Source: Candidatus Hodarchaeota archaeon (lineage in GTDB: Archaea; Asgardarchaeota; Heimdallarchaeia; Hodarchaeales; Hodarchaeaceae). From it: a stretch of DNA of 16,082 nt. The translations under genes and the position numbers were made by a program. Location of the stretch: positions 1 through 16,082 of the forward strand of contig JAHQWW010000083.1 in NCBI GenBank assembly GCA_029856365.1, read 5' to 3'. Numbering within the stretch: the first letter of the stretch is position 1; each line of letters starts with the position of its first letter. Below the pieces are notes generated by a model. It was not told the origin of the DNA. It did no database searches and was given only the letters and a program-made list of their open reading frames with translations. Of this stretch, positions 3-15,530 are shown piece by piece.

Positions 3-3000
3 GGGAAAAATCCTCGCTCTAATCCAGCTACTTATACCAATTTAGCGGGTGTCGTTCGTGATATCTTTGCAAAAATTACAGGGGTTTCCTCTTCACACTT
101 TTCTTTCAATCGGTCAGAAGGATGGTGTGAAAACTGCAAAGGTATGGGAGCCATTGAAGTAAAAATGCGATTCCTACCCTCCACTTGGATTCCATGTGAT
201 GTGTGTGAGACAAAACGGTTTTCTGAAAAAGTCCTTGAAGCAATGATACGATTTGAGAACCAATCACTTTCAATTTCTGATTTCTATGAACTATCAGTTG
301 ATGAAGCGTATAATTTGCTCATTAAACAGAAAAAAATCAGTCTCACACAAAAGGACTGGAACGCTGTTAAACGGATTTTGACTGCACTTCATGACGTTGG
401 CTTAGGTTATCTCCCCCTTGGACAACCCTCTCCAACACTTTCAGGAGGAGAAGCTCAACGAGTAAAATTAGCGAAATATTTAGGAATGAAGTCGTTAAAA
501 GAGAGGTTGATCTTATTAGATGAACCTTCTACAGGCTTACATCCGCATGATGTATCACGATTATTATCTGTTTTAGATAAACTAGTGCGAACAGGTGCAA
601 CGATAGTAGTTGTAGAACATAATTCTGATTTTATTCGTGCAGCCGATTGGATTGTAGATCTTGGACCTGGTGCGGGCCCTGAAGGGGGACAATTGATCTT
701 TGCTGGTTCTCCAAAAGAGTTACCTAAAGTCAAGGAATCTGTTACTACAAAAGGACTTCTCTTTGAGGATTCGATAAGTCCTAAGGAAAAAGATTTTCAG
801 TATGACAATAAAGTAGACATTATTCGAGTAGAGAAAGCAGCTGCAAACAACCTTAAGAACGTTTCAGTAGAGTTTCCTAAGGGGTCAATAACTGTAGTCA
901 CGGGGGTGTCTGGTTCAGGGAAGTCAAGTCTAATTAGTGATATTCTTAAATCTGAGGCAGAAAGACGTTTCCTCGAGACATTATCTCTTTATGAGAGACA
1001 AGGATTCAGAGAAGGGCCTGAAGCACCAGTTGATTCTATAACTGGTCTTGGTGTCACTATTAGTATTGATCCAAGGCGAATTGGAAAATGGTATAATTAT
1101 CGTTCAACTGTAGGCTTGATAACAGAGATTTCACATCATTTAACAATCCTTATGTCTAATTTCGGTGAATATAAGTGTTCAAATTGTAATACTCTATGTA
1201 GGAGACAACACCAAGAATGGTTTTGCCCAAACTGCAATTTTTCATTTCCAATTCCTGAAGCAAAGTATTTTTCCACTTCAAATTATGCTTCAGCTTGCAA
1301 GAAATGTCATGGGGTTGGGACACTTCCAATCCCTAAACCAGAGAAATTAATCATTCATCCTGATAAACCTTTGTGTAAGGGAGCAATGTACTCTCCAGGA
1401 TTCTTTCCAAAGGGCTATTTATGTAAAAGGTATAATGGAGGATATTATGTAGTTCAGGCTTTAGCAAAACGTCATTATTTTGATCCTATGACAACTCCTT
1501 GGAATAAAATGTCTCCTGAAGCTCAAAGCGCCTTTTTATTTGGCGAATCAAAACCATTAAAGGTTACATTTGAAAGTCGAAGTCGACCAGGTATCTATGA
1601 TAGGACAATTCAATTCCGCGGGTTTTATGGTTGGATAGGTGACTGGGATGTAGGGGGTACATATTCTTCTACAGTAACATGTTCCGAGTGTAATGGAACA
1701 CGATTAAGGCCTGAATACCTTTCTATAACTCTTGGAGGCTATAATATACATGATTTTACTGAAATGGCTTTTAAGCAACTTCTAGCGGTATTACAGGACC
1801 TAAAATTACCAGATATAGATACAAATATCGCTCGATTCAGTTTGGAGACCATTATTCATCGTCTCAGCTTCTTGAATCAAGTCGGTTTAGGGTATATCAA
1901 TGCCTCACGAGTTATAATGACATTGAGTGCAGGAGAGGCTCAACGAATAAGATTAGCTGGATTATTAGGGAGTAATTTGACCTCTCTTACTGTCTTACTT
2001 GACGAACCAACTAGAGGTTTACATCCTAGTGAGATTGATGGATTGTTAAATGCTTTAACTCGACTTCGTGATGATAATAATACAGTCATTGTTATAGAGC
2101 ATGATCCTCAGGTAATCAAGGCAGCTGATCATGTAATCGATATTGGCCCTGGCCCTGGAGCAGCGGGTGGAAAAATTGTTGCTCAAGGAACTCTTGCGCA
2201 AATTTCTAAAGCTGATACAATCACTGCATTATGGTTGCGAGGAAAACGTCGTTTTCGTCGTCCAAAGAAGTACGAGAAATTCCGTAAACCACGTGGATGG
2301 TTAACTCTTAAAGGTGTTCGTGAAAATAATCTTAAGAATATTGATTTAAAAATTCCTCTCGGTGTTTTTGTAGGTATTTGCGGGGTATCTGGTTCAGGGA
2401 AAAGTTCGCTGTTCATTGATGTCTTAAGCCGTATTCTTGTACCTAAAAAGCATACAACATCGGTCGCTTATGAACCAAAAGATCCTGGTGAATACGATTC
2501 TATTAATGGTGCTCCTTCTCGAGCACTGATTATTGACCAATCAAAACATGAAGTTAGTAGTCCATTTGCTTATTTTAACTTAAGAAAACCTCTTTATTCC
2601 TTATATGCCGAAAGTGCCGATGCCAAAGCTCTTGGATTGGATGAAAAGCATTTATTCCAACGATGTTCTGCTTGTAAGGGTAGGGGTCGAATTCGAATGG
2701 ACATGGGGTTTCTCCCTGACGTATTCACTTCTTGTGATACATGTCAAGGAACTGGCCTCACAGCTGAAGCATGGATGGTTCGATTATATGGGTATACTTT
2801 GCCAGAGCTGTTTGATTTAACACTTAACCAGATATATGATCTTTTCAAACATGATGATAGGATCTCTCGACCACTACAAGCAGCTAAAGACGTGGGTCTA
2901 GGATATTTAATATTACGTCAACCACGTATTCATTTATCAGGTGGAGAATGTCAAAGGCTAAAAATTGCCAAAGAACTTAGTAGAAAGAAACCAAAATCAG

Positions 3001-3287
3001 AAAAATCAACAATGTATATTTTGGATGAACCGACCGTGGGTCAGCATTTGCAAGATGTGTCACGTTTGCTGAAAGTTCTTCAACGTTTGGTTGACGAAGG
3101 GAATAGTGTGATAGTGATTGAACATCACCCCCATGTTCTTGCTGCCTGTGACTGGCTTCTAGAACTTGGCCCTGTGGGGGGACCAGAAGGTGGGTATATT
3201 GTGGCAGCTGATACACCCATAAAAGTAGCGGAAGGAGTTACTCCTACTGCTAAGTACCTTTGTACTGTTTTAGAGGGCCAATTATGA
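3..3287 (+). CDS. uvrA: Tandem-fused (double-length) UvrA-family ABC ATPase, 5'-truncated by the window edge
   Basis: The frame is open from nt 3 (GKNPRSNPATYT...FSFNRSEGWCENCKG), so the ATG at 144 is internal. The end of one UvrA unit (LSGGEAQR, DEPSTGLH, VEHN) is followed in frame by a complete second unit: GVSGSGKS twice, LSAGEAQR/DEPTRGLH, LSGGECQR/DEPTVGQH and several CxxC zinc modules. Confidence 0.92.
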   Translation, partial: GKNPRSNPATYTNLAGVVRDIFAKITGVSSSHFSFNRSEGWCENCKGMGAIEVKMRFLPSTWIPCDVCETKRFSEKVLEAMIRFENQSLSISDFYELSVDEAYNLLIKQKKISLTQKDWNAVKRILTALHDVGLGYLPLGQPSPTLSGGEAQRVKLAKYLGMKSLKERLILLDEPSTGLHPHDVSRLLSVLDKLVRTGATIVVVEHNSDFIRAADWIVDLGPGAGPEGGQLIFAGSPKELPKVKESVTTKGLLFEDSISPKEKDFQYDNKVDIIRVEKAAANNLKNVSVEFPKGSITVVTGVSGSGKSSLISDILKSEAERRFLETLSLYERQGFREGPEAPVDSITGLGVTISIDPRRIGKWYNYRSTVGLITEISHHLTILMSNFGEYKCSNCNTLCRRQHQEWFCPNCNFSFPIPEAKYFSTSNYASACKKCHGVGTLPIPKPEKLIIHPDKPLCKGAMYSPGFFPKGYLCKRYNGGYYVVQALAKRHYFDPMTTPWNKMSPEAQSAFLFGESKPLKVTFESRSRPGIYDRTIQFRGFYGWIGDWDVGGTYSSTVTCSECNGTRLRPEYLSITLGGYNIHDFTEMAFKQLLAVLQDLKLPDIDTNIARFSLETIIHRLSFLNQVGLGYINASRVIMTLSAGEAQRIRLAGLLGSNLTSLTVLLDEPTRGLHPSEIDGLLNALTRLRDDNNTVIVIEHDPQVIKAADHVIDIGPGPGAAGGKIVAQGTLAQISKADTITALWLRGKRRFRRPKKYEKFRKPRGWLTLKGVRENNLKNIDLKIPLGVFVGICGVSGSGKSSLFIDVLSRILVPKKHTTSVAYEPKDPGEYDSINGAPSRALIIDQSKHEVSSPFAYFNLRKPLYSLYAESADAKALGLDEKHLFQRCSACKGRGRIRMDMGFLPDVFTSCDTCQGTGLTAEAWMVRLYGYTLPELFDLTLNQIYDLFKHDDRISRPLQAAKDVGLGYLILRQPRIHLSGGECQRLKIAKELSRKKPKSEKSTMYILDEPTVGQHLQDVSRLLKVLQRLVDEGNSVIVIEHHPHVLAACDWLLELGPVGGPEGGYIVAADTPIKVAEGVTPTAKYLCTVLEGQL

Positions 3288-4315
3288 ATTGGATTCCATT
3301 ACTTTTAGCAGATCCATCTCCTTGTTTGCGTTTATTGGTCTTACAGGACCTTCTACATAAGTCAGAATCAAATCTAGAAGTCAAAGAGTTAAAAGAAATT
3401 CGTGATTCTGATTTTCTAATAGTAGACTTCATTAAACTCCAACAATCTGATGGTTCTTGGAATGGTGCTGATTTTCCGAATTTATTTACTTATACCGATA
3501 AAATAACAACTACTTCAATGGTGTTGTTAAGATTTGGATTCTTAGGATATTCATCAGAGCATCCTTCCGTTCAGAAGGGAGTTGATTTTCTCTTCTCAAA
3601 ACAATCAGATGAAGGATCATGGCCTCTTCCTCTTAGAAGCCAAAAAGTTGATGGAGGGTATGATATGATTCCTTTACAAACTGCATTTCCATTACGTGCA
3701 GTCGCAGCATGTGGATACTCGACTAATGAACGAGCTGAACTTGGTTTCGAATGGTTATTAGCTCAAAGACTAAGAGATGGATCATGGCCAGCAGGAACGA
3801 AAGCAGGAACAAGGGGTTTTATTGCAGGCTATCGAAAGCTCGCTCATTCTCGGTGGGGATGTCGAACAAATACTACAGCAGCGTTACATTGTTTGGCATT
3901 ACATCCTACATATCAAACTGGTGAAGACGCTCATCGTGCCCTTGATCTTCTTCTTGCTCGTGAAACTCGTGAAAAACATACTCTTGGATTTGAAGTTACT
4001 CGTCTGATTGGATTAGAACTAGCTACAGGATATTTTACACATTTTGCTAGATTTGATGCTGCTTTCCTTCTCCATTTATGTTGGCGAGTTGGAGCTAGTA
4101 CTGAGGATGACCGAGTGAATGAACTATTAGAATTCATCCTTCAACAACAAGGATCTTATGGTTTATGGAATTATCCCCCTTTTCCACAAGCTTCTAGGTG
4201 GATAACCTTTGATATATTACGGTCTCTTTCAGGACTGGATAATTCCACTGATTGGCTCAGTCTTGAACCAAGAACCCCATTCAGAACATATCAGAGAAGT
4301 GAGAAGAGATTCTAG
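3284..4315 (+). CDS. Prenyltransferase/squalene-oxidase (QW-repeat) alpha/alpha-barrel protein
   Basis: Repeated QxxDGSW-type motifs (QQSDGSW, QSDEGSW, QRLRDGSW, QQGSYGLW) each follow a helix. The ATG at 3284 overlaps the uvrA stop (ATGA) and is preferred over the TTG at 3260. Confidence 0.8.
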   Translation: MNWIPLLLADPSPCLRLLVLQDLLHKSESNLEVKELKEIRDSDFLIVDFIKLQQSDGSWNGADFPNLFTYTDKITTTSMVLLRFGFLGYSSEHPSVQKGVDFLFSKQSDEGSWPLPLRSQKVDGGYDMIPLQTAFPLRAVAACGYSTNERAELGFEWLLAQRLRDGSWPAGTKAGTRGFIAGYRKLAHSRWGCRTNTTAALHCLALHPTYQTGEDAHRALDLLLARETREKHTLGFEVTRLIGLELATGYFTHFARFDAAFLLHLCWRVGASTEDDRVNELLEFILQQQGSYGLWNYPPFPQASRWITFDILRSLSGLDNSTDWLSLEPRTPFRTYQRSEKRF

Positions 4316-4349: not shown

Positions 4350-5300
4350 CTAGTTTTCAAGAAAAACATTGTTAATTTTAAGAAGTAACGATCGAAGCCA
4401 GATAACGAGAGAAAGATGCCCTCCTGGATAGGAGAGGAGTGGTTTACTTAACATGTTGGCTAGATTTCGAACTCGACTAAATGGCACAATTCGATCATAT
4501 TTTCCTCCAATTATTGCAGTGTGACGATTAGTGGTAAATGGAGAAAAATATTTCAAGTTACACGAGTAGAGGATCTTATACCAATTAGTTTGTCCTTTTT
4601 CTTTCATTTGAGAGACAATTTCTGTCGAGATAGGGACAATTTTTGGGTTAATGTTAAATAAAAAAGGACTTGCAAGTGCACAAATAATATCAATTTCTTT
4701 AAGAAATTGTGTTATGAGAGCTGTTAAATGGCCTCCTAGTGAAACTCCAAATAAAACGATTCGTTCATATTTTTCTTTAAGATAGTAAACTAAGTACAAA
4801 ATTTCTTGAATAGATTGCCGGATGGATTCTAACATCCTAATAGGATTACCATTAAGGTAATAAGCTCCTGAGAAAGGAGAATCGTTTGGTTGACGATGAA
4901 AATGATAGGGTAATTCAAAAGTTAATATATTACTTTGAAATATATTCTGTAAGATGCGAAAATAACTGATTTCATGGAAAAAAAAAGTTGATTCAGCATA
5001 ACCATGAATGAAAAGAACTACAGATTTAGAATTCTGGCCATCAAAGTCCTTATGTCGATATTGGTGAGTGATCATTTTGAGTACAGGATGATATTTTGTT
5101 TCTTGTAATATTGGAGAAAGAGGTTGATATGGACTGCTAAATTTAGCAGCAGAATGAGAGAAAGAACCTCTAGAAATGCTTTGACTCCATTTGATTTCGT
5201 GAAATTTTGGTTTGAAATTTTTGATAAAAAAATCACGGGGGTTTTTTTGATAATAACGCCTGTATATAGAAATAAATGACTGAGAAAGATCTATATCCAT
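4350..5300 (-). CDS. Alpha/beta-fold hydrolase
   Basis: HG oxyanion motif (LFIHGY), GxSxG nucleophile elbow (GVSLGG), Asp in GKYDRIVP and His in YPGGH. Start is uncertain: ATG 5300, GTG 5351 or TTG 5417. Confidence 0.85.
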   Translation of the reverse strand: MDIDLSQSFISIYRRYYQKNPRDFFIKNFKPKFHEIKWSQSISRGSFSHSAAKFSSPYQPLSPILQETKYHPVLKMITHQYRHKDFDGQNSKSVVLFIHGYAESTFFFHEISYFRILQNIFQSNILTFELPYHFHRQPNDSPFSGAYYLNGNPIRMLESIRQSIQEILYLVYYLKEKYERIVLFGVSLGGHLTALITQFLKEIDIICALASPFLFNINPKIVPISTEIVSQMKEKGQTNWYKILYSCNLKYFSPFTTNRHTAIIGGKYDRIVPFSRVRNLANMLSKPLLSYPGGHLSLVIWLRSLLLKINNVFLEN

Positions 5301-5537
5301 AAGATTTCCTTTATTTCGGAATTTAAAATAATTTATAACGGGATACTCCACTAGATCGCTGGGAACAATGGTGCCCAATACTAAACTAGCTCCTTGATGA
5401 CAAAAGGTAATTAACAAAATGCAGCTTGATCTTTTTTTATTGAAGATACTTATAAATTATGGCTTACAGAAATTTCCAAAGAATATCTAATCTATCATTT
5501 GAGAACATTAGCGATTAAAAATCTTGAGAATAGTAAA

Positions 5538-6302
5538 ATGAGTATCAAAGAGATCTTCAATGAACTCATAAATGCTAATAACGCAGAACCACTTTTAAAA
5601 TTGATCCAAGAAATTAAGGAGAGTATTCCCCAATCTCAAAGAACGGGAAAAGGCATAGTTTGGACCTTACGTCAGATTAGAAAACAAATTATCAAAGAAA
5701 AAGTCCTTTTAGAAGTGAAAAAGCAATCTTTGGATGTGTTAATTAGTAATGATCATTGGCAAATCAGACACCTCGCTCCATTAATAGCATCTAATTGTAG
5801 TATTGAGGAAAAACACCTTACATCTTACTTGCCTATAATAAAATCTGCTGCAATTGATTTGCATTTTGCTGTGAGAGAAGCAGCCCAAATGGCAATGAGG
5901 GAATTATTGCAGGTATTTCCTGACGAAGTCCTCCAACTATACGATAATGAATGGATAGCTAACCCTGAGGAAAATGTTAGGCGTTGTGTATCGGAATCAC
6001 TCAGGCCAGTTCTGGTTGGAGGTAAAAATTGGATCCATAATGAACCACAGGAGAGTGTTAAGAGATTAAAGCGGTTAAATCGTGATCCAAGCTTATATGT
6101 TCGTAAAAGTGTTGGGAATAATCTAGCTGATATTTCTAGAAAGCATCCAAAATTAGTATTAGCAATTCTTCGTGAATGGTTAGATGAAAATAATTATAAT
6201 AAATGGACATTATTCATTGCTCGAAAAGCATGCCGTCGTGTCGTTAAGATTCACCCTGTTGAAGTGAATGAACTACTTAGAGGGAAATCCATCGTCAAAT
6301 AG
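5538..6302 (+). CDS. HEAT-repeat DNA alkylation repair protein (AlkC/AlkD-like superfamily)
   Basis: HEAT-like helical repeats (FAVREAA, ENVRRCVSESLRP, DPSLYVRKSVGNNLADIS). The last motif is typical of DNA alkylation repair enzyme families. ATG 5538 is preferred over TTG 5499. Confidence 0.8.
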   Translation: MSIKEIFNELINANNAEPLLKLIQEIKESIPQSQRTGKGIVWTLRQIRKQIIKEKVLLEVKKQSLDVLISNDHWQIRHLAPLIASNCSIEEKHLTSYLPIIKSAAIDLHFAVREAAQMAMRELLQVFPDEVLQLYDNEWIANPEENVRRCVSESLRPVLVGGKNWIHNEPQESVKRLKRLNRDPSLYVRKSVGNNLADISRKHPKLVLAILREWLDENNYNKWTLFIARKACRRVVKIHPVEVNELLRGKSIVK

Positions 6303-6495: not shown

Positions 6496-6897
6496 TCATT
6501 CCATTGTTGTCAATCCTTTCAAAAGTTCCAATGCTTGATCTGATTTATCAATAGGAACAAAAAGATGATCATGATAATACGCAGAAACAATATTCACACT
6601 TATTTTTGATTTAGCTAACGTATCTGTGATTACAGACAGAAATCCAATAGCTGAGAGGTTGGAATGAACTGTGAGGATAATCCATGCCCATACCCCAAAA
6701 TAAGAAAGAGAATTATTTTCTGCAATTTTCCTTTTTACAATAAGAGTGATTCCTTCTTCTTCTGAAAACATCATTAGGGGACTAATTTTCAGTTCAGAAA
6801 AACGAGTTCTGGAAATAGTACAAAAAACAAATTCTTCATTTACTATTTTTGGTTTCATTTGTTTTAACAAGATCTTCAAGTTTGATATGCCAACCAA
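6496..6897 (-). CDS. ACT domain-containing protein (DUF2241/ACT_3 + ACT_7, CASTOR-ACT-like)
   Basis: Motifs FVFCT, EEEGITLIV, LTVHSNLSAIGF and NIVSAYYHDHLFVP. A GAGGT RBS-like motif lies just upstream of the TTG start. Confidence 0.88.
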   Translation of the reverse strand: MVGISNLKILLKQMKPKIVNEEFVFCTISRTRFSELKISPLMMFSEEEGITLIVKRKIAENNSLSYFGVWAWIILTVHSNLSAIGFLSVITDTLAKSKISVNIVSAYYHDHLFVPIDKSDQALELLKGLTTME

Positions 6898-6974
6898 AAA
6901 AATACCTCTTATACTGGTTGATTGTTAAATTGGATCCTTTTTTTAAAAGTCTGCTTAAATCAATTAATAGAATA

Positions 6975-8204
6975 TTAAATACGAGAAAGTGCTTGTGATA
7001 AGTCTTCAATGAGATCATCAATATCCTCAAGGCCCACAGACAACCTTACTAAACCATCCATAATTCCACTATCAATACGTGTTTCTCGAGGAACTTTAGC
7101 ATGACTCATACTGGCCGGGTGCTGAATAAGACTATATATACATCCCAAAGAAGGTGCCAATGTGATAACTCTCACATTATTCATTAAACTCTCTCCTCCT
7201 TCTAGTCCTGTTTTTAATTCAAAAGCTATCATACCACCAAATTTTCCATTCATCTGTCGTTTAGCTAATGTGTGTTGAGGATGGGATGTTAATCCTGGAT
7301 AAAATACCTCTTTAATCTTAGGATGGTCTGTAAGATATTCTGCTAAAGCCATGGCATTAGAACAATGTCTTTCCATCCTTAATGGCAAAGTTTTCATTCC
7401 ATTAAGAACTAAAAAAGCATCGAATGGTGATTGTGTTGCCCCAAGATTTTTCTTTACAAACTGTAAACGTTCTCTTTTCTCCCCAATTAATTTTGAAGCT
7501 AGAATCCCAGAACAAGTCGTACCATGGCCATTTAGATATTTTGTAGTAGAATGTACAGAGATATCTGCTCCCAATTCCAGAGGTTTTTGTAACACAGGAG
7601 TAGCAAAAGTGTTGTCAACAATAACTGGGATGCTATGTTCTTTTCCAATCTTACTGATTTCATGAATGTCAGAAATAGCTAAATTTGGATTAGTAGGAGT
7701 TTCAATATAGAGAAGATCGATTTTGGAATTCATAACTTCCTTTACTCGTTCTACCCCTTCAATCCCTGATGTATTAACGTATTTGGTTTTAATACGATAA
7801 GCTTGCAGAATTCCATCGAGTAAATAATTGGTGCCACCATAGACTGGATTCGTAGCCAAAATTATGTCTTCACTTTTTGTCAACGCAATTAAAATTGTTG
7901 CAATGGCAGACATTCCTGTTGCAAAAGCATGGCCTTCAACATGAATTCTCTTTTTCATTAGATTAATTCCTTCAAGAATAGCTAACTTCTCTTCAGAAGC
8001 AAATACTGTTGGATTGCCAAGCCGTGTGTAAATATATCCTGGTTCGTCACCCTCAAATCTTTTACGTCCAATCTCAACATCAGGAAATCTGAAGGTAGAA
8101 GTAGCAAAAATTGGTGTAACAAGAGAATCAGCATAGCTCTCTTCGATCCCTGCACGGAGAGCTAGTGTTGCAGTCTTCCAATTAAGATATGTATTATATG
8201 TCAT
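6975..8204 (-). CDS. megL: PLP-dependent trans-sulfuration enzyme, methionine gamma-lyase-like
   Basis: Motifs PIFATSTF, GYIYTRLGNPT, ETPTNP, DNTFATP, HSTTKYLNGHG (PLP lysine), HPASMSH and GLVRLSVGLE. The family is certain but the substrate is not, because the sequence has YGGT rather than YGCT. Confidence 0.85.
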   Translation of the reverse strand: MTYNTYLNWKTATLALRAGIEESYADSLVTPIFATSTFRFPDVEIGRKRFEGDEPGYIYTRLGNPTVFASEEKLAILEGINLMKKRIHVEGHAFATGMSAIATILIALTKSEDIILATNPVYGGTNYLLDGILQAYRIKTKYVNTSGIEGVERVKEVMNSKIDLLYIETPTNPNLAISDIHEISKIGKEHSIPVIVDNTFATPVLQKPLELGADISVHSTTKYLNGHGTTCSGILASKLIGEKRERLQFVKKNLGATQSPFDAFLVLNGMKTLPLRMERHCSNAMALAEYLTDHPKIKEVFYPGLTSHPQHTLAKRQMNGKFGGMIAFELKTGLEGGESLMNNVRVITLAPSLGCIYSLIQHPASMSHAKVPRETRIDSGIMDGLVRLSVGLEDIDDLIEDLSQALSRI

Positions 8205-8303
8205 AATTATCAAAATCCATTATATGTAATTATGGTCAAGATTTCGTGTTTTGAAAATCAAACCTTAAGTTTTTAGTCTTCTATAGGAGTTTAATTTATT
8301 GAC

Positions 8304-9080
8304 GTGAATTCTCTTCTCTATCCTCAAAAACCATGTGGTCTCCCTTTCAGAGAAGCTATTCAGCGTGATCCCTCCTTAAGCAAATATGCAACCAAGAATA
8401 AAATTGATTTGGGGGATAGGGAGGCTTTACTTCTGTACAATCGGTTAGTACTACAAGATTTTATGTCTTTAGATTTCACGGTTCCTCCAGGATTTTTGGT
8501 TCCAACCATTTGCAGTCGGTGGGCTTTTATTTCATGGATTATTCAGGATAATCCATCTAAAGTCTTGGAGATCGGTACAGGTTCTTCTGCAATCCTAGCT
8601 TTGATGTTTACTAAAATTGGTTGTGTTGTAGAGGCAACAGAAATCAATGGTATTGCATTTCAAAGTGCTCGAAATAACATCAAATTTAATGGTCTAGATT
8701 CAAAGATACAGTTAAGAAAAATAAAAGGGAATGATTATATTCTTAAGAATTATTATACTTCTTTGAATAGATTTGATGTGATAGTTTGTAATCCACCACA
8801 ATATGACAAAGATTATTTCAAAAAGCAACGTTCATCAAATAAAGGTTTTGCTGGGCAAGAATCTGAACTAGTAGGAGGGGATAGAGGTCATGAATTTATT
8901 GTAAAGTTAATAGAGGAAATCGTAACTTTTACAAATCCTCCAAGTCTTTATTTCCAATTAACCGTACCTAATTTACAAAAAATAATTTGCTCTTATCTCC
9001 AAGATAAGAATTATTCATTTATTAAAGACAAGAATATTATTGGTACCAGACAACGATATTACTTCAGAGTAGATTATTAG
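8304..9080 (+). CDS. RlmF/METTL16-related SAM-dependent N6-adenine RNA methyltransferase
   Basis: N-terminal IDLGDREALLLYNR...VPPGFLVPT..SR resembles RlmF/METTL16. Motif I is LEIGTGSSAI, followed by EATEIN, the catalytic CNPPQY motif and ELVGG. Confidence 0.8.
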   Translation: MNSLLYPQKPCGLPFREAIQRDPSLSKYATKNKIDLGDREALLLYNRLVLQDFMSLDFTVPPGFLVPTICSRWAFISWIIQDNPSKVLEIGTGSSAILALMFTKIGCVVEATEINGIAFQSARNNIKFNGLDSKIQLRKIKGNDYILKNYYTSLNRFDVIVCNPPQYDKDYFKKQRSSNKGFAGQESELVGGDRGHEFIVKLIEEIVTFTNPPSLYFQLTVPNLQKIICSYLQDKNYSFIKDKNIIGTRQRYYFRVDY

Positions 9081-13007: not shown

Positions 13008-13409
13008 CTATCTCCCATGGCAATCTTTGATAGCCCATTCAATAAGTGGTTGAAGACTATTCCGTAATTGAATTCCTTTGGAAGTTAAATGATATTCAAC
13101 TCGAGGTGGGATTTCTGCAAAATGCTTCTTGTTGAGGATCTTCATTTCTTCTAGCTCTTTCAATCGTGAAGATAATGTTGTATCACTAATTATTTCTGAG
13201 GTAATTCCTTTAATTCTAGTTTTAACCTCTGAATATCTCAATTTCTTAATTGTACTAGCAAATTCATCGTGGTCTATTGGAAAAATCATTATAATAAATA
13301 TCATCCACTTTTTACTGATTGATTTTAGGTATTTTATAAGAGGTTTCAGGCAAATACCATTTACCTCAATTGGTAGGCATTCTTGTATCATTTTTTGTTG
13401 AGTGATCAA
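13008..13409 (-). CDS. HxlR/DUF24-family winged-helix transcriptional regulator
   Basis: Motifs KKWMIFII, LRYSEVK..I, ISDTTLSSRLKELE and PPRVEYHLT..G..L. The N-terminal region has two cysteines (ECLP..GICL). An alternative ATG lies at 13391. Confidence 0.9.
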   Translation of the reverse strand: MITQQKMIQECLPIEVNGICLKPLIKYLKSISKKWMIFIIMIFPIDHDEFASTIKKLRYSEVKTRIKGITSEIISDTTLSSRLKELEEMKILNKKHFAEIPPRVEYHLTSKGIQLRNSLQPLIEWAIKDCHGR

Positions 13410-13429
13410 TTCTTTATTCCACCGTAGTA

Positions 13430-13496
13430 ACTAACAAAGTGTTTAGTAAATGATTTATTAAGCTTTAGTTTTTGGTGTTAATCACTTTATTAAAGT
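13430..13496. promoter_or_regulatory. Putative divergent promoter with two inverted-repeat operators
   Basis: ACTAA-N8-TTAGT (13430-13447) and ACTTT-ATT-AAAGT (13484-13496) flank TTTATTAA (13454-13461), between the HxlR gene and the small ORF/ABC genes. Confidence 0.45.
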
Positions 13497-13515
13497 TGTA
13501 AAAAAGTGAAGAAAA

Positions 13516-13677
13516 ATGTCAAAAAAGAAGGATTGTTCCTGTGAAAAGCATAAGAAAGATCATCATGAAGAGATGAACCAGTCAGAAAAGATAAAACACC
13601 TCAATGAATGTCTTGAGGATGTTATTGGGAGGCTTGAGTGTATCAAAGAGATTGTAATAAAACTATCATCAAATTAG
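13516..13677 (+). CDS. Small Cys/His-rich protein (53 aa), below the ORF-track cutoff
   Basis: ATG 13516 to TAG 13677 gives MSKKKDCSCEKHKKDHHEEMNQSEKIKHLNECLEDVIGRLECIKEIVIKLSSN. It fills an otherwise long gap and has a coiled-coil-like C-terminus. Confidence 0.7.
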   Translation: MSKKKDCSCEKHKKDHHEEMNQSEKIKHLNECLEDVIGRLECIKEIVIKLSSN

Positions 13678-13756
13678 AAATCACGAAAGGATTTCTTTTT
13701 TATAATGATAGATGCTATGAAGTTGTAACTAAATCTTTTCCTAGAAGTTGATTATA

Positions 13757-14758
13757 ATGACCAATGCAATTGAAGTTGATAATTTATCCAAGCACTTTCA
13801 CACTCCTAAAGCAAAAAAATTATTTCTAGCCAAACAAAAAAGTTTTGAACAGAAAGCCACCAAAAGAGACGTTATACGAGCTGTAGATAATGTGAGTTTT
13901 CATGTTGTAAAAGGAGAAATCTTCGGTTTATTAGGACCTAATGGCGCTGGGAAGACAACAACAATACGAATGCTAACAGGAGTATTAAAACCAACAGCAG
14001 GGAAAATTACCATATTGGGGAGAGATTTCTTGAAAAATAGAATAGTGATCCAACAAATCATCGGTAATGTGCCAGAAATGGCAAATGCTTACCTAGATCT
14101 ATCAGGATTCCAAAATTTAGAGTTGATTGGTGAACTTTATGGTGTAAAGAAGACTGAACGCATTAAACAAGCCGAATATCTGCTAAAAAAGTTTGGAATT
14201 TTTGAAAGTCGTAATCTCAAAGCAAAAAAATATTCAAAAGGAATGAGACAACGATTATTATTGTGTATGGCCTTAATGAGTAATCCAAAAGTACTTTTTC
14301 TAGATGAACCAACTTCAGGTTTGGATGTACAAAGTAGTATTATTATTAAAAATCTAATAAGAGAATATCACAAAACAGGTATGACAATAGTTCTCACAAC
14401 GCACAATATGGATGTTGCAAATGAGTTATGTGACAGAATAGGGATTATAAATAAAGGCAAACTGGTAGGATTAGATACACCAGAAAATCTGCTAAAATTA
14501 ATGCAAGAATATCTAGCTTTAGATGTTAGTTTCGAAAATAACTATATTAACGAAAAAGAAATGATAATTTTACCATATGTCAAGAAGATTTCCAAAATTG
14601 GGAAAAAATACCGAATTATTGTTAGTAGCCTTAATGATGGTCTTTGTGATATTGTAGAATATGCAAAATCAAATAATTTGAAGATAGATAAAATCAATAC
14701 ATATGAACCGCATTTACAGGATGTTTTCATACAAATTATTAATGTAGGAGGAGTCTAA
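13757..14758 (+). CDS. ABC-2 type exporter ATP-binding subunit (DrrA/NodI-like)
   Basis: Walker A GPNGAGKTT, signature YSKGMRQR, Walker B LFLDEPTSGLD, TTHNM, and a C-terminal P.L.DVF tail. Confidence 0.95.
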   Translation: MTNAIEVDNLSKHFHTPKAKKLFLAKQKSFEQKATKRDVIRAVDNVSFHVVKGEIFGLLGPNGAGKTTTIRMLTGVLKPTAGKITILGRDFLKNRIVIQQIIGNVPEMANAYLDLSGFQNLELIGELYGVKKTERIKQAEYLLKKFGIFESRNLKAKKYSKGMRQRLLLCMALMSNPKVLFLDEPTSGLDVQSSIIIKNLIREYHKTGMTIVLTTHNMDVANELCDRIGIINKGKLVGLDTPENLLKLMQEYLALDVSFENNYINEKEMIILPYVKKISKIGKKYRIIVSSLNDGLCDIVEYAKSNNLKIDKINTYEPHLQDVFIQIINVGGV

Positions 14759-14759
14759 A

Positions 14760-15530
14760 GTGCAAGAATTTATTTCAGATAGTCCAACATCTCTCATTAC
14801 TCAATTAAAGAGATCATTTGCTATTATGAAGAAAGACCTTAGGATCTATTATAATAAAGGGCCTGTGATCATTCAGGGAATACTTTTCCCAGTAATGCTA
14901 TTTTTTGCTTTTACTATCGGCAGAAATATAGCCCCAGTTTATATTATCTCTGGCCTTATGGCTATGGTACTCTTTCTGACTTCAACTTCAATAGGACCAG
15001 TAGTATTCCCCTGGGAAACAAGGCAAATGACTCTTGAAAGATTAATAACATGTCCAGTTTCAATAAAAACGATTTTGTTGGGAAATTTGTGGAGTTCACT
15101 TGTCTTTGGTTGTGTTTTTTCAACTATTCCTTTAATTTTAGGAATGATTCTATTTTTTGAGTTCCAAATGAATTATTTCTTAATTATCATGGGAATTATA
15201 ATTGCTGCGCTAGCATTTTCTAGTTTCTCATTAATTCTTTCAGTACCTCCAACAGATATGCCTGCAAATACAATGATTTTAACCATCTTAGTTAAATTTC
15301 CAATAATATTCATAAGTCCTCTGTTTATGCCAGTTTCTTTTGCACCACTTGCGATAGTTTCCCCACTCACTTATTTCATTGATATAATAAATATTGGTCT
15401 TGGAATTGAAAGTTCATTTGGATACCTCGGATTTTTTTTTGACTTTATTATATTAATGGTCTTTTCTCTCTTGTCTTTATTTGCAGCGTTTTTCTTACAT
15501 GAAAAAACTATAACGAGAAGATTTTCTTGA
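14760..15530 (+). CDS. ABC-2 type exporter permease
   Basis: About six hydrophobic helices, ETRQMTLERLITCPVS and SPLTY motifs. It starts after a 1-nt gap from the ATPase stop, with GGAGG upstream. Confidence 0.92.
   Translation: MQEFISDSPTSLITQLKRSFAIMKKDLRIYYNKGPVIIQGILFPVMLFFAFTIGRNIAPVYIISGLMAMVLFLTSTSIGPVVFPWETRQMTLERLITCPVSIKTILLGNLWSSLVFGCVFSTIPLILGMILFFEFQMNYFLIIMGIIIAALAFSSFSLILSVPPTDMPANTMILTILVKFPIIFISPLFMPVSFAPLAIVSPLTYFIDIINIGLGIESSFGYLGFFFDFIILMVFSLLSLFAAFFLHEKTITRRFS

Follow-up and report, generated by a model that had tools for sequence, protein, structure and literature searches.

A two-gene module joining a double UvrA ATPase and an alpha/alpha toroid protein in Asgard archaea and bacteria

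Introduction

This work deals with a 16,082-base stretch of Asgard archaeal DNA (hereafter the window), which begins with a gene for an unusual, double-length ATPase of the UvrA family, joined by overlapping stop and start codons to a gene for a small protein with the alpha/alpha toroid fold. It is strongly supported that these two genes constitute a dedicated system, because their adjacency is conserved across archaea and bacteria, the overlap of the reading frames is conserved, the two proteins have diverged together and no other neighbouring gene is conserved. In our opinion, with a probability of roughly 40%, the pair may be an accessory module directed against bulky DNA-bound genotoxins or adducts, in which the ATPase would recognise the target and the docked toroid would bind, trap or transform the exposed ligand or lesion. 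Full-text literature searches found no paper describing a UvrA–toroid pair. The uvrA-PG1037-pcrA operon of P. gingivalis was considered as a precedent and rejected, as it involves an unrelated SWIM zinc-finger protein.

Locus and Conservation of the Gene Pair

The window is the complete contig C103 of a metagenome-assembled genome (MAG) of 4.24 Mb in 204 contigs, which is 83.6% complete and has its nearest relatives among Asgard archaea, namely Hodarchaeota, Heimdallarchaeota and 'Promethearchaeota' MAGs. The open reading frame (ORF) of the ATPase extends beyond the contig start, hence its open 5' end, and encodes 1094 amino acids in the window; since the window is the entire contig, this is the sole reason why the N-terminal ~540 residues of the protein are not seen. 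In the first-pass annotation of this DNA, the ATPase gene was described as coupled to the following barrel gene by an ATGA overlap, and direct reading confirmed it: the TGA of the UvrA frame (3285–3287) overlaps the ATG of the toroid gene (3284–3286), and a Shine-Dalgarno-like motif lies 6 nucleotides before this ATG. The elements of the locus are as follows.

3–830, plus strand: remainder of unit 1 of the double UvrA, cut by the contig start, with the second ATP-binding cassette (ABC) module carrying zinc module 3 and the signature domain, then a short, poorly conserved linker (aligned to residues ~540–815 of a 90%-identical homologue of 1633 residues; LSGGEAQR, LLDEPSTGLH and VVEHN intact).
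831–3287, plus strand: complete unit 2 of the double UvrA including the stop codon, with two ABC modules, a reduced zinc module 1, the insertion domain and zinc module 3 (motifs, Pfam, alignment); the whole ATPase frame is 3–3287.
1341–1631, plus strand: insertion (DNA-binding) domain of unit 2 (PF17755, UvrA_DNA-bind; residues 447–543 of the 1094-residue product).
3273–3287, plus strand: coupling junction, GAGGG (3273–3277) followed by the ATGA stop/start overlap (3284–3287) (sequence read; NTGA overlap kept in relatives).
3284–4315, plus strand: toroid partner, a single (alpha/alpha)6 barrel of 343 residues with QW-like repeats (Pfam, AlphaFold2 model, structure search).
3827–3865, plus strand: family signature of the toroid, G-Y-R-K-L-A-H-S-R-W-G-C-R, residues 182–194 (invariant columns, predicted secondary structure).
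4262–4312, plus strand: conserved C-terminal tail of the toroid, E-P-R-T-P-F-x-x-Y...K-R-F (alignment; predicted local distance difference test (pLDDT) about 46–67).

The proposal that these genes form a two-gene system was borne out by a survey of gene neighbourhoods in archaea and bacteria, in which toroid homologues proved to be anything but rarely adjacent to double-UvrA genes. In contigs representing one genome per species, a gene of ~1640 amino acids was situated directly upstream of the toroid gene in all seven loci (five Asgard archaea, one KSB1 bacterium and one unclassified bacterium). When genome and metagenome loci having at least 300 nucleotides upstream of the toroid gene were taken together, the double UvrA was found immediately upstream in 77 out of 79. 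The two exceptions look like module decay: an M42 peptidase gene is inserted between the genes in L012, and no UvrA lies upstream in L073. In two of the 77 loci (L059 and L084), the UvrA is reduced to a C-terminal stump and the toroid persists; together with L073, they indicate either that the module is decaying there or that the toroid is able to act alone.

Of 75 related loci, 65 show exactly the same four-nucleotide NTGA overlap, and the coupling of the genes exceeds chance. Clustering of all neighbouring ORFs revealed no third conserved gene, the next commonest neighbour being present in 6 loci. The distance matrices of the two proteins correlate with r = 0.92, a value reached by 0 of 999 permutations in a Mantel test, and their mean divergences are nearly equal (0.405 and 0.397). 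This correlation speaks for co-inheritance rather than contact, because shared ancestry alone yields some correlation. Natural in-frame fusions of UvrA and toroid were met twice among about 2000 clusters, one of them on a 409-kb contig; they lend the pairing weak support, since sequencing error is possible. The module is recognised as a two-unit UvrA of ~1630 amino acids upstream of a toroid of ~344 amino acids that has G-Y-R...G-C-R-[ST]-N and an E-P-R-T-P-F tail, with the four-nucleotide overlap between the genes, and the pair in the window belongs to it.

Distribution and Accessory Status

About 100 of the 399 Asgard genomes, roughly a quarter, have a toroid orthologue (at least 45% identity); these orthologues are set off by a clear gap from paralogues, which show at most 34% identity. 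The coordinates of the Asgard double-UvrA orthologues abut those of the toroid gene on the same strand; the genes that are apparently split over contigs represent contig breaks, and in G270 both contigs end at the junction. Asgard families differ, which makes the distribution patchy; the module is present in 16 of 19 genomes of one family, for instance, and absent from all 12 of another. Bacterial carriers are sporadic (2 of 14 and 1 of 121 genomes in two sampled phyla). Source names and the ESM Atlas extended the list of carriers to Chloroflexota and Bathyarchaeia. The module appears to move between genomes as a self-contained unit.

Patchy occurrence with the look of horizontal transfer is also what could be expected of anti-phage or anti-plasmid defence, where the ABC ATPase would sense foreign or modified DNA and the toroid would serve as an effector. 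In addition, the ATPase matches the PADLOC models mad3 and mad8. This explanation is, nevertheless, highly unlikely. The PADLOC matches are spread over all ABC modules (mad3 over five stretches), as befits a generic likeness to ABC/OLD-type ATPases. MAD3 is described as an ATPase related to OLD that partners the MAD4 nuclease (PMC13662399); the contig carries no further MADS component, the toroid has no PADLOC match, and the pair does not qualify as a MADS system, in which MAD3 stands together with MAD4 and the methylation genes. The module contains no nuclease or other killing domain. No relative was found in the viral contigs searched, the toroid had no match in the plasmid collection at E 1e-8, and plasmid UvrA proteins among the matches listed were all single-unit. 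Its neighbours are metabolic and regulatory genes rather than defence islands, and a paralogous operon, considered below, is PadR-regulated and carries small-molecule-type enzymes.

The same genome also encodes a canonical UvrA (contig C187, 1032 bits), as well as UvrB and UvrC (contig C18), and beside this full UvrABC set the module is accessory. Of 12 module-bearing genomes tested for UvrB, 10 have it; the other two are 74% and 81% complete. The observation that no uvrB or uvrC follows the pair holds for the whole contig of the window.

Structure of the Double UvrA

The 1094-residue fragment scores 1017 bits with the UvrA model TIGR00630 (cut-off 729.8), which places it in the UvrA family, and direct reading showed that all its Walker A, signature, Walker B and H-loop motifs are intact. 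It comprises the last ABC module of unit 1 and the whole of unit 2. Homologues on longer contigs, 53–90% identical to it, span 1620–1650 amino acids, and the ATPase of the window, as judged by alignment, corresponds to the last 1094 residues of a single-chain double UvrA of ~1633 residues. The designation of this protein as an atypical double UvrA was therefore correct, the homologues being asymmetric two-unit chains of about that length.

The beginning of unit 1 was studied in the 90%-identical homologue of 1633 residues. Here, a UvrB-binding-like domain (PF17760, UvrA_inter) occupies residues 127–201 with 28.9 bits against a cut-off of 23.3 and is flanked by the cysteines of zinc module 1; zinc module 2 is collapsed to CPYCKGEGCKRC, and unit 1 gave no PF17755 match, so that its insertion domain is gone. 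In unit 2, merely 12 residues separate the cysteine pairs of zinc module 1, and because this loop is so short there is no place for a UvrB-binding domain; the insertion domain PF17755 is present in full. As units 1 and 2 have each lost a different accessory domain, the ATPase can be read from its sequence as an asymmetric pseudo-dimer in one covalent chain, where four ATPase sites are combined with a single partner-binding domain and a single insertion domain that clamps DNA. Mean top-residue frequencies in 31 full-length members show that the UvrB-binding-like domain is the least conserved (0.56), the ATPase and DNA-binding domains being at 0.69–0.78 and the insertion domain, at 0.76, level with the ATPase cores.

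Several known types of UvrA were compared with this protein. Class I UvrA (TIGR00630; PDB 9gxk, 3pih, 2r6f) has the same domain grammar, each unit of the double UvrA aligns with it along the full length, and the functional particle likewise has four ATPase sites. However, class I UvrA is a homodimer with two UvrB-binding and two insertion domains per particle, whereas the double UvrA fuses two units into one chain of ~1633 residues with one domain of each kind, is co-encoded with the toroid and never with uvrB or uvrC, and is additional to a canonical UvrA. Assignment to class I was rejected, as the score with the equivalog model NF001503 is 930.9 bits against a cut-off of 1147 and each unit is devoid of one domain.

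Class II proteins (UvrA2, DrrC, Ecm16; PDB 2vf7, 7sh1) are likewise accessory paralogues, and DNA-bound drugs, not UV lesions, are the plausible object of their function, as is supposed here. Unit 2 on its own fits the class II pattern, in particular by the loss of the UvrB-binding domain, and the insertion domain that decides specificity in Ecm16 (PMC10192343) is among the best conserved domains of the double UvrA. Class II proteins are, in contrast, single-unit homodimers of ~750–850 amino acids with neither a UvrB-binding domain nor a dedicated partner, and Ecm16 alone gives resistance; in the double UvrA, unit 1 keeps the UvrB-binding-like domain and the partner gene is obligatory. A simple class II UvrA was rejected because the chain has two units and unit 1 of the homologue retains PF17760 above the cut-off. 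The long chlamydial-type UvrA (NF001885, 1809 positions) is also a double-length model of the UvrA family, but the protein of the window falls far below its cut-off (597.9 bits vs 3054) and was not assigned to it.

Another long form of UvrA was encountered in one Asgard family (G082:C57:30108-32144, G086:C4:108325-110388 and G084:C52:14695-16758), with open frames of 1972–1975 amino acids, about 40% identical to unit 2 and with a match range of the canonical type.

The supposition that the barrel protein replaces UvrB does not hold as it was worded, since unit 1 of the homologues keeps PF17760 and the genome has both UvrB and UvrC; for the same reasons, the use of UvrB by the module may still be considered. 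The main rival explanation, which is quite possible though on the doubtful side, regards the module as a specialised front end of nucleotide excision repair (NER): unit 1 would load one UvrB, the toroid would be a lesion-presenting or specificity subunit with a role similar to that of alkyltransferase-like proteins, which pass lesions on to UvrA, and UvrB and UvrC would finish the repair. The above-threshold PF17760 match in the full-length homologue and the presence of UvrB and UvrC in the genome of the window, with UvrB in most module-bearing genomes, are in line with it, as is one genome in which a toroid paralogue is located between uvrA and uvrC. This gene order is, however, found in only 1 of 17 loci of that paralogue family, and uvrB and uvrC never accompany the module itself, as the clustering of neighbouring ORFs demonstrates. 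Moreover, one would not expect a domain that contacts the highly conserved UvrB to be, as here, the least conserved of the whole ATPase.

Structure of the Toroid Partner

The toroid family is tight and includes about 2000 clusters (~344 amino acids) at 90% identity and only about 15 full-length clusters at 50%. In the window protein, Pfam recognises SQHop_cyclase_C (PF13243) on residues 47–176 only (43.6 bits, 2.5e-11), and a squalene-hopene cyclase from the PDB matches about 140 residues with E = 5e-9; the score with TIGR01787 is 44 bits against a cut-off of 322.7. AlphaFold2, using a 21-sequence alignment, gave a confident single-domain alpha/alpha toroid of paired helices (pLDDT 89.5, predicted template modelling score 0.90). 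A structure search against 48,161 PDB representatives returned alpha/alpha toroids exclusively, with the complement C5 thioester domain (Z 14.7), drimenyl-diphosphate synthase (14.5) and squalene-hopene cyclase (14.0) at the top, followed by GH76, LanC and others down to Z 10; the list is flat and no family is prominent in it. Foldseek, which had been suggested for the barrel, also returned the toroid fold from the PDB, but its matches were weak (template modelling score at most 0.48). A search of the ESM Atlas with the toroid gave its own family and nameless paralogues only.

Of the four QW-like repeats originally ascribed to this protein, three are strict (QxxDGSW-like) and the fourth is looser. 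The absence of the cyclase motif DxDD (D.DD) from the window toroid was confirmed, as was the basic character of its central segment; among 21 family members, the motif occurs once, at a non-homologous N-terminal site. The toroid has no CGEQ, and its sole C-x-x-[QN] is C193-R-T-N, placed in the middle of the protein and not near the domain start. The idea of a thioester domain, which had come from this C-x-x-N, was rejected, as there is nothing beyond motif likeness and the likeness of the fold. A test for a protein prenyltransferase beta subunit, which has a PF00432 domain and an Asp/Cys/His zinc site, gave no PF00432 match at E <= 0.01 and one conserved Cys, with GGTase-III beta at Z 10.6 in the fold list. 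Class II terpene cyclases, prenyltransferase beta subunits and the thioester domains of complement and alpha2-macroglobulin share with the partner an (alpha/alpha)6 toroid with QW-type repeats, but the partner differs from them in being a single domain of 343 residues without DxDD, with G-C-R-S/T-N for CGEQ and no evident zinc triad, and in having a basic hairpin insert and a set of invariant polar residues peculiar to it.

The central basic segment GYRKLAHSRWGCR (residues 182–194) is part of a beta-hairpin-like insert in the model, and this insert leads up to the N-terminus of an inner helix that is also predicted. Invariant columns of the family are mostly polar or charged (G182, Y183, R184, C193, R194, D165, D258, R277 and W157). 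Invariant residues sit within A-G-Y-R-K-L-A-H-S-R-W-G-C-R-S/T-N-T-T, GCR[ST]N is present in 18 of 21 members, and P-L-Q-T-A is near-invariant. In the predicted structure, the invariant residues appear to be positioned in the hairpin-like insert and where inner helices begin, which is the usual site of catalysis in toroid enzymes, and they may line a polar pocket, judging from these positions in the secondary structure only. Residues of this kind, as opposed to an aromatic terpene-type cavity, do not support the suggestion, as it was worded, that the ligands of the toroid are hydrophobic. The conserved C-terminal tail has low predicted order. It is confined to toroids that are paired with the double UvrA, being absent from toroid paralogues, and might be a docking peptide.

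These data bear on two other explanations. One of them supposes that the pair is adjacent without any shared function, the toroid being an isoprenoid or other metabolic enzyme encoded downstream of a UvrA paralogue. The names given by Pfam and NCBI (squalene-hopene cyclase C-terminal domain; prenyltransferase/squalene oxidase repeat protein) are of this kind, but it is hardly credible in view of the conservation of both the pairing and the four-nucleotide overlap across domains of life, the single domain without DxDD, the polar nature of the conserved residues and the absence of isoprenoid genes nearby.

According to the other explanation, which we regard as unlikely, the ATPase works by itself and the toroid would be a subunit without catalytic activity that assembles, stabilises or regulates it, such as a lid over the UvrB-binding-like domain. 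Strict 1:1 translational coupling, equal divergence rates of the two proteins and the lack of a recognisable catalytic motif of known toroid enzyme families would agree with such a role. Nevertheless, a non-catalytic scaffold, which had been among the initial suggestions, sits poorly with the invariant Cys, Arg and Asp residues, which are predicted to gather at the N-termini of helices, like the active-site residues of toroid enzymes; in addition, the Cys is kept in a paralogue serving another UvrA, and the toroid outlives the loss of the ATPase in a few loci (L059, L073 and L084).

Paralogous Operon and Other Neighbouring Genes

One Asgard family has a toroid paralogue, 22–24% identical to the partner and retaining the Cys as G-K-H-T-C-H-M, in a conserved operon with the order PadR – BtrH_N/DUF4872 papain-like protein – toroid paralogue – DUF3795 – (second BtrH-like protein) – S-adenosylmethionine (SAM) methyltransferase – class II-like UvrA. 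This layout is present in all nine operons fetched (L102, L103 and L107–L113; e.g., L103:2863-9563, minus strand), with the BtrH_N/DUF4872 protein fused to HNH once, in L103; one further toroid of the same type stands alone (L099). The class II-like UvrA of the operon is a single-unit protein of about 830 amino acids, which has the insertion domain and is devoid of the UvrB-binding domain. In three genomes (L104–L106), the operon lacks the toroid paralogue and runs directly into the double UvrA with its own toroid. In the genus of the window, the PadR – BtrH_N – class II UvrA core occurs without a toroid, and the double-UvrA module is elsewhere in the genome (L116, L117). Thus, each of the two UvrA paralogues is tied to its own toroid and, within a single operon frame, one toroid stands in for the other, which speaks for a shared pathway. 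As PadR regulators and small-molecule methyltransferases are involved, this would seem to be a response to a compound and not to radiation. An actin-family gene (L103:1562-2707, minus strand; PF00022, 4e-129) adjoins the class II UvrA operon, which fits an Asgard host.

A third type of toroid paralogue (324 amino acids, Ser in place of Cys) was found at L115:1-3583 (G381:C78), where the C-terminal end of a uvrA at the contig start, the toroid gene and a full uvrC follow one another on one strand. No UvrA, UvrB or UvrC neighbour was seen at the 16 other loci of this type that were checked, and for this reason the arrangement was not taken as a general link to NER.

Occasional direct neighbours of the module are genes for an HlyD-type efflux adaptor (6 loci) and, in 5 loci each, for a glyoxalase/bleomycin-resistance-fold protein and for a SAM methyltransferase. 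In three loci, among them the window (4350–5417), the module adjoins a gene for an alpha/beta hydrolase. At 5499–6302 (plus strand), 1.2 kb downstream of the toroid gene, the window encodes a 267-residue homologue of AlkC/AlkD2-like HEAT-repeat alkyl-DNA glycosylases (PF08713, DNA_alkylation, 26.5 bits; AlkC 5vhv at 1.2e-13), one of two such genes in the genome, and a relative of this gene flanks the module in L013. Because each of these genotoxin-flavoured neighbours is infrequent, they are a hint and not a proof.

The remaining part of the window contains genes of other kinds. At 6496–9080, the families assigned by Pfam to the minus-strand genes are those of an ACT-domain protein and a pyridoxal-phosphate-dependent enzyme of Cys/Met metabolism, and the plus-strand gene belongs to Methyltransf_10 (RlmF/METTL16-type). 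At 13008–15530, an HxlR-family regulator is divergent from an ABC-2 exporter pair, consisting of an ATPase with a weak DrrA1-3_C match and then an ABC2_membrane permease. This DrrAB-like efflux pair lies at a distance of 9 kb from the gene of the UvrA paralogue, which may mean nothing, given how common pairs of this kind are.

Possible Function

Class II UvrA proteins are established as a protection from DNA-binding drugs that does not depend on UvrB. One of them, Ecm16, gives resistance to echinomycin without UvrB binding. It requires ATP hydrolysis and the insertion domain, which sets the specificity, for distinguishing echinomycin-bound DNA, and functions in uvrA, uvrB, uvrC and uvrD mutants (PMC10192343; 10.1101/2022.02.02.478902). 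By analogy, the single-chain UvrA of the module would scan duplex DNA like the class II proteins DrrC and Ecm16, its conserved insertion domain would recognise one class of bulky DNA-bound ligand or adduct, and ATP would be used to dislodge or expose this ligand or adduct. The toroid, a dedicated cytoplasmic protein, may dock on the ATPase, the candidate contacts being the conserved tail at the C-terminus of the toroid, the UvrB-binding-like domain of unit 1, or both. In a polar pocket around the invariant Cys193, Arg184, Arg194, Asp165 and Asp258, it would then bind the released ligand or the lesion, trap it or process it chemically.

The first-pass annotation had imagined the barrel as a sink or modifier for hydrophobic DNA-binding compounds. 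Apart from the word hydrophobic, this idea is the best available and gains circumstantial support, because a paralogous toroid belongs to an operon with PadR, a methyltransferase and a class II UvrA and because some neighbours of the module have a flavour of genotoxin resistance. Several facts weigh against an accessory genotoxin module: no toxin, biosynthetic cluster or inducer is known for it; each type of genotoxin-flavoured neighbour is present in only 2–6 of 88 loci, the other neighbours being unrelated; and hand-over to UvrB is possible, as unit 1 keeps the UvrB-binding-like domain and 10 of 12 module genomes have UvrB.

A bolder version of the proposal, which seems rather unlikely, makes the toroid a new repair or detoxification enzyme in the place of UvrB. 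It would dock at the UvrB site, and Cys193 would covalently capture or cleave the exposed genotoxin or adduct. If this were true, the module would represent an excision-free, UvrBC-independent branch of UvrA proteins common to Asgard archaea and sediment bacteria.

Conclusions

UvrA is among the best-studied sensors of DNA damage, and the ways in which it discriminates lesions and hands them over are still debated. The two-gene unit described here recurs nearly unchanged in sediment archaea and bacteria, and it was shown that toroid paralogues are recurrently linked to UvrA paralogues. An asymmetric UvrA 'dimer' fixed in one chain and provided with a different obligatory partner is a handle on asymmetric intermediates of damage recognition, and the paralogous PadR-regulated operon offers a second, independent entry point for experiments. 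The pair also suggests that a large orphan branch of the terpene-cyclase/prenyltransferase fold has a function not recognised so far, and it may reveal a route of genotoxin resistance that is common in anoxic sediments and present in roughly a quarter of Asgard genomes.

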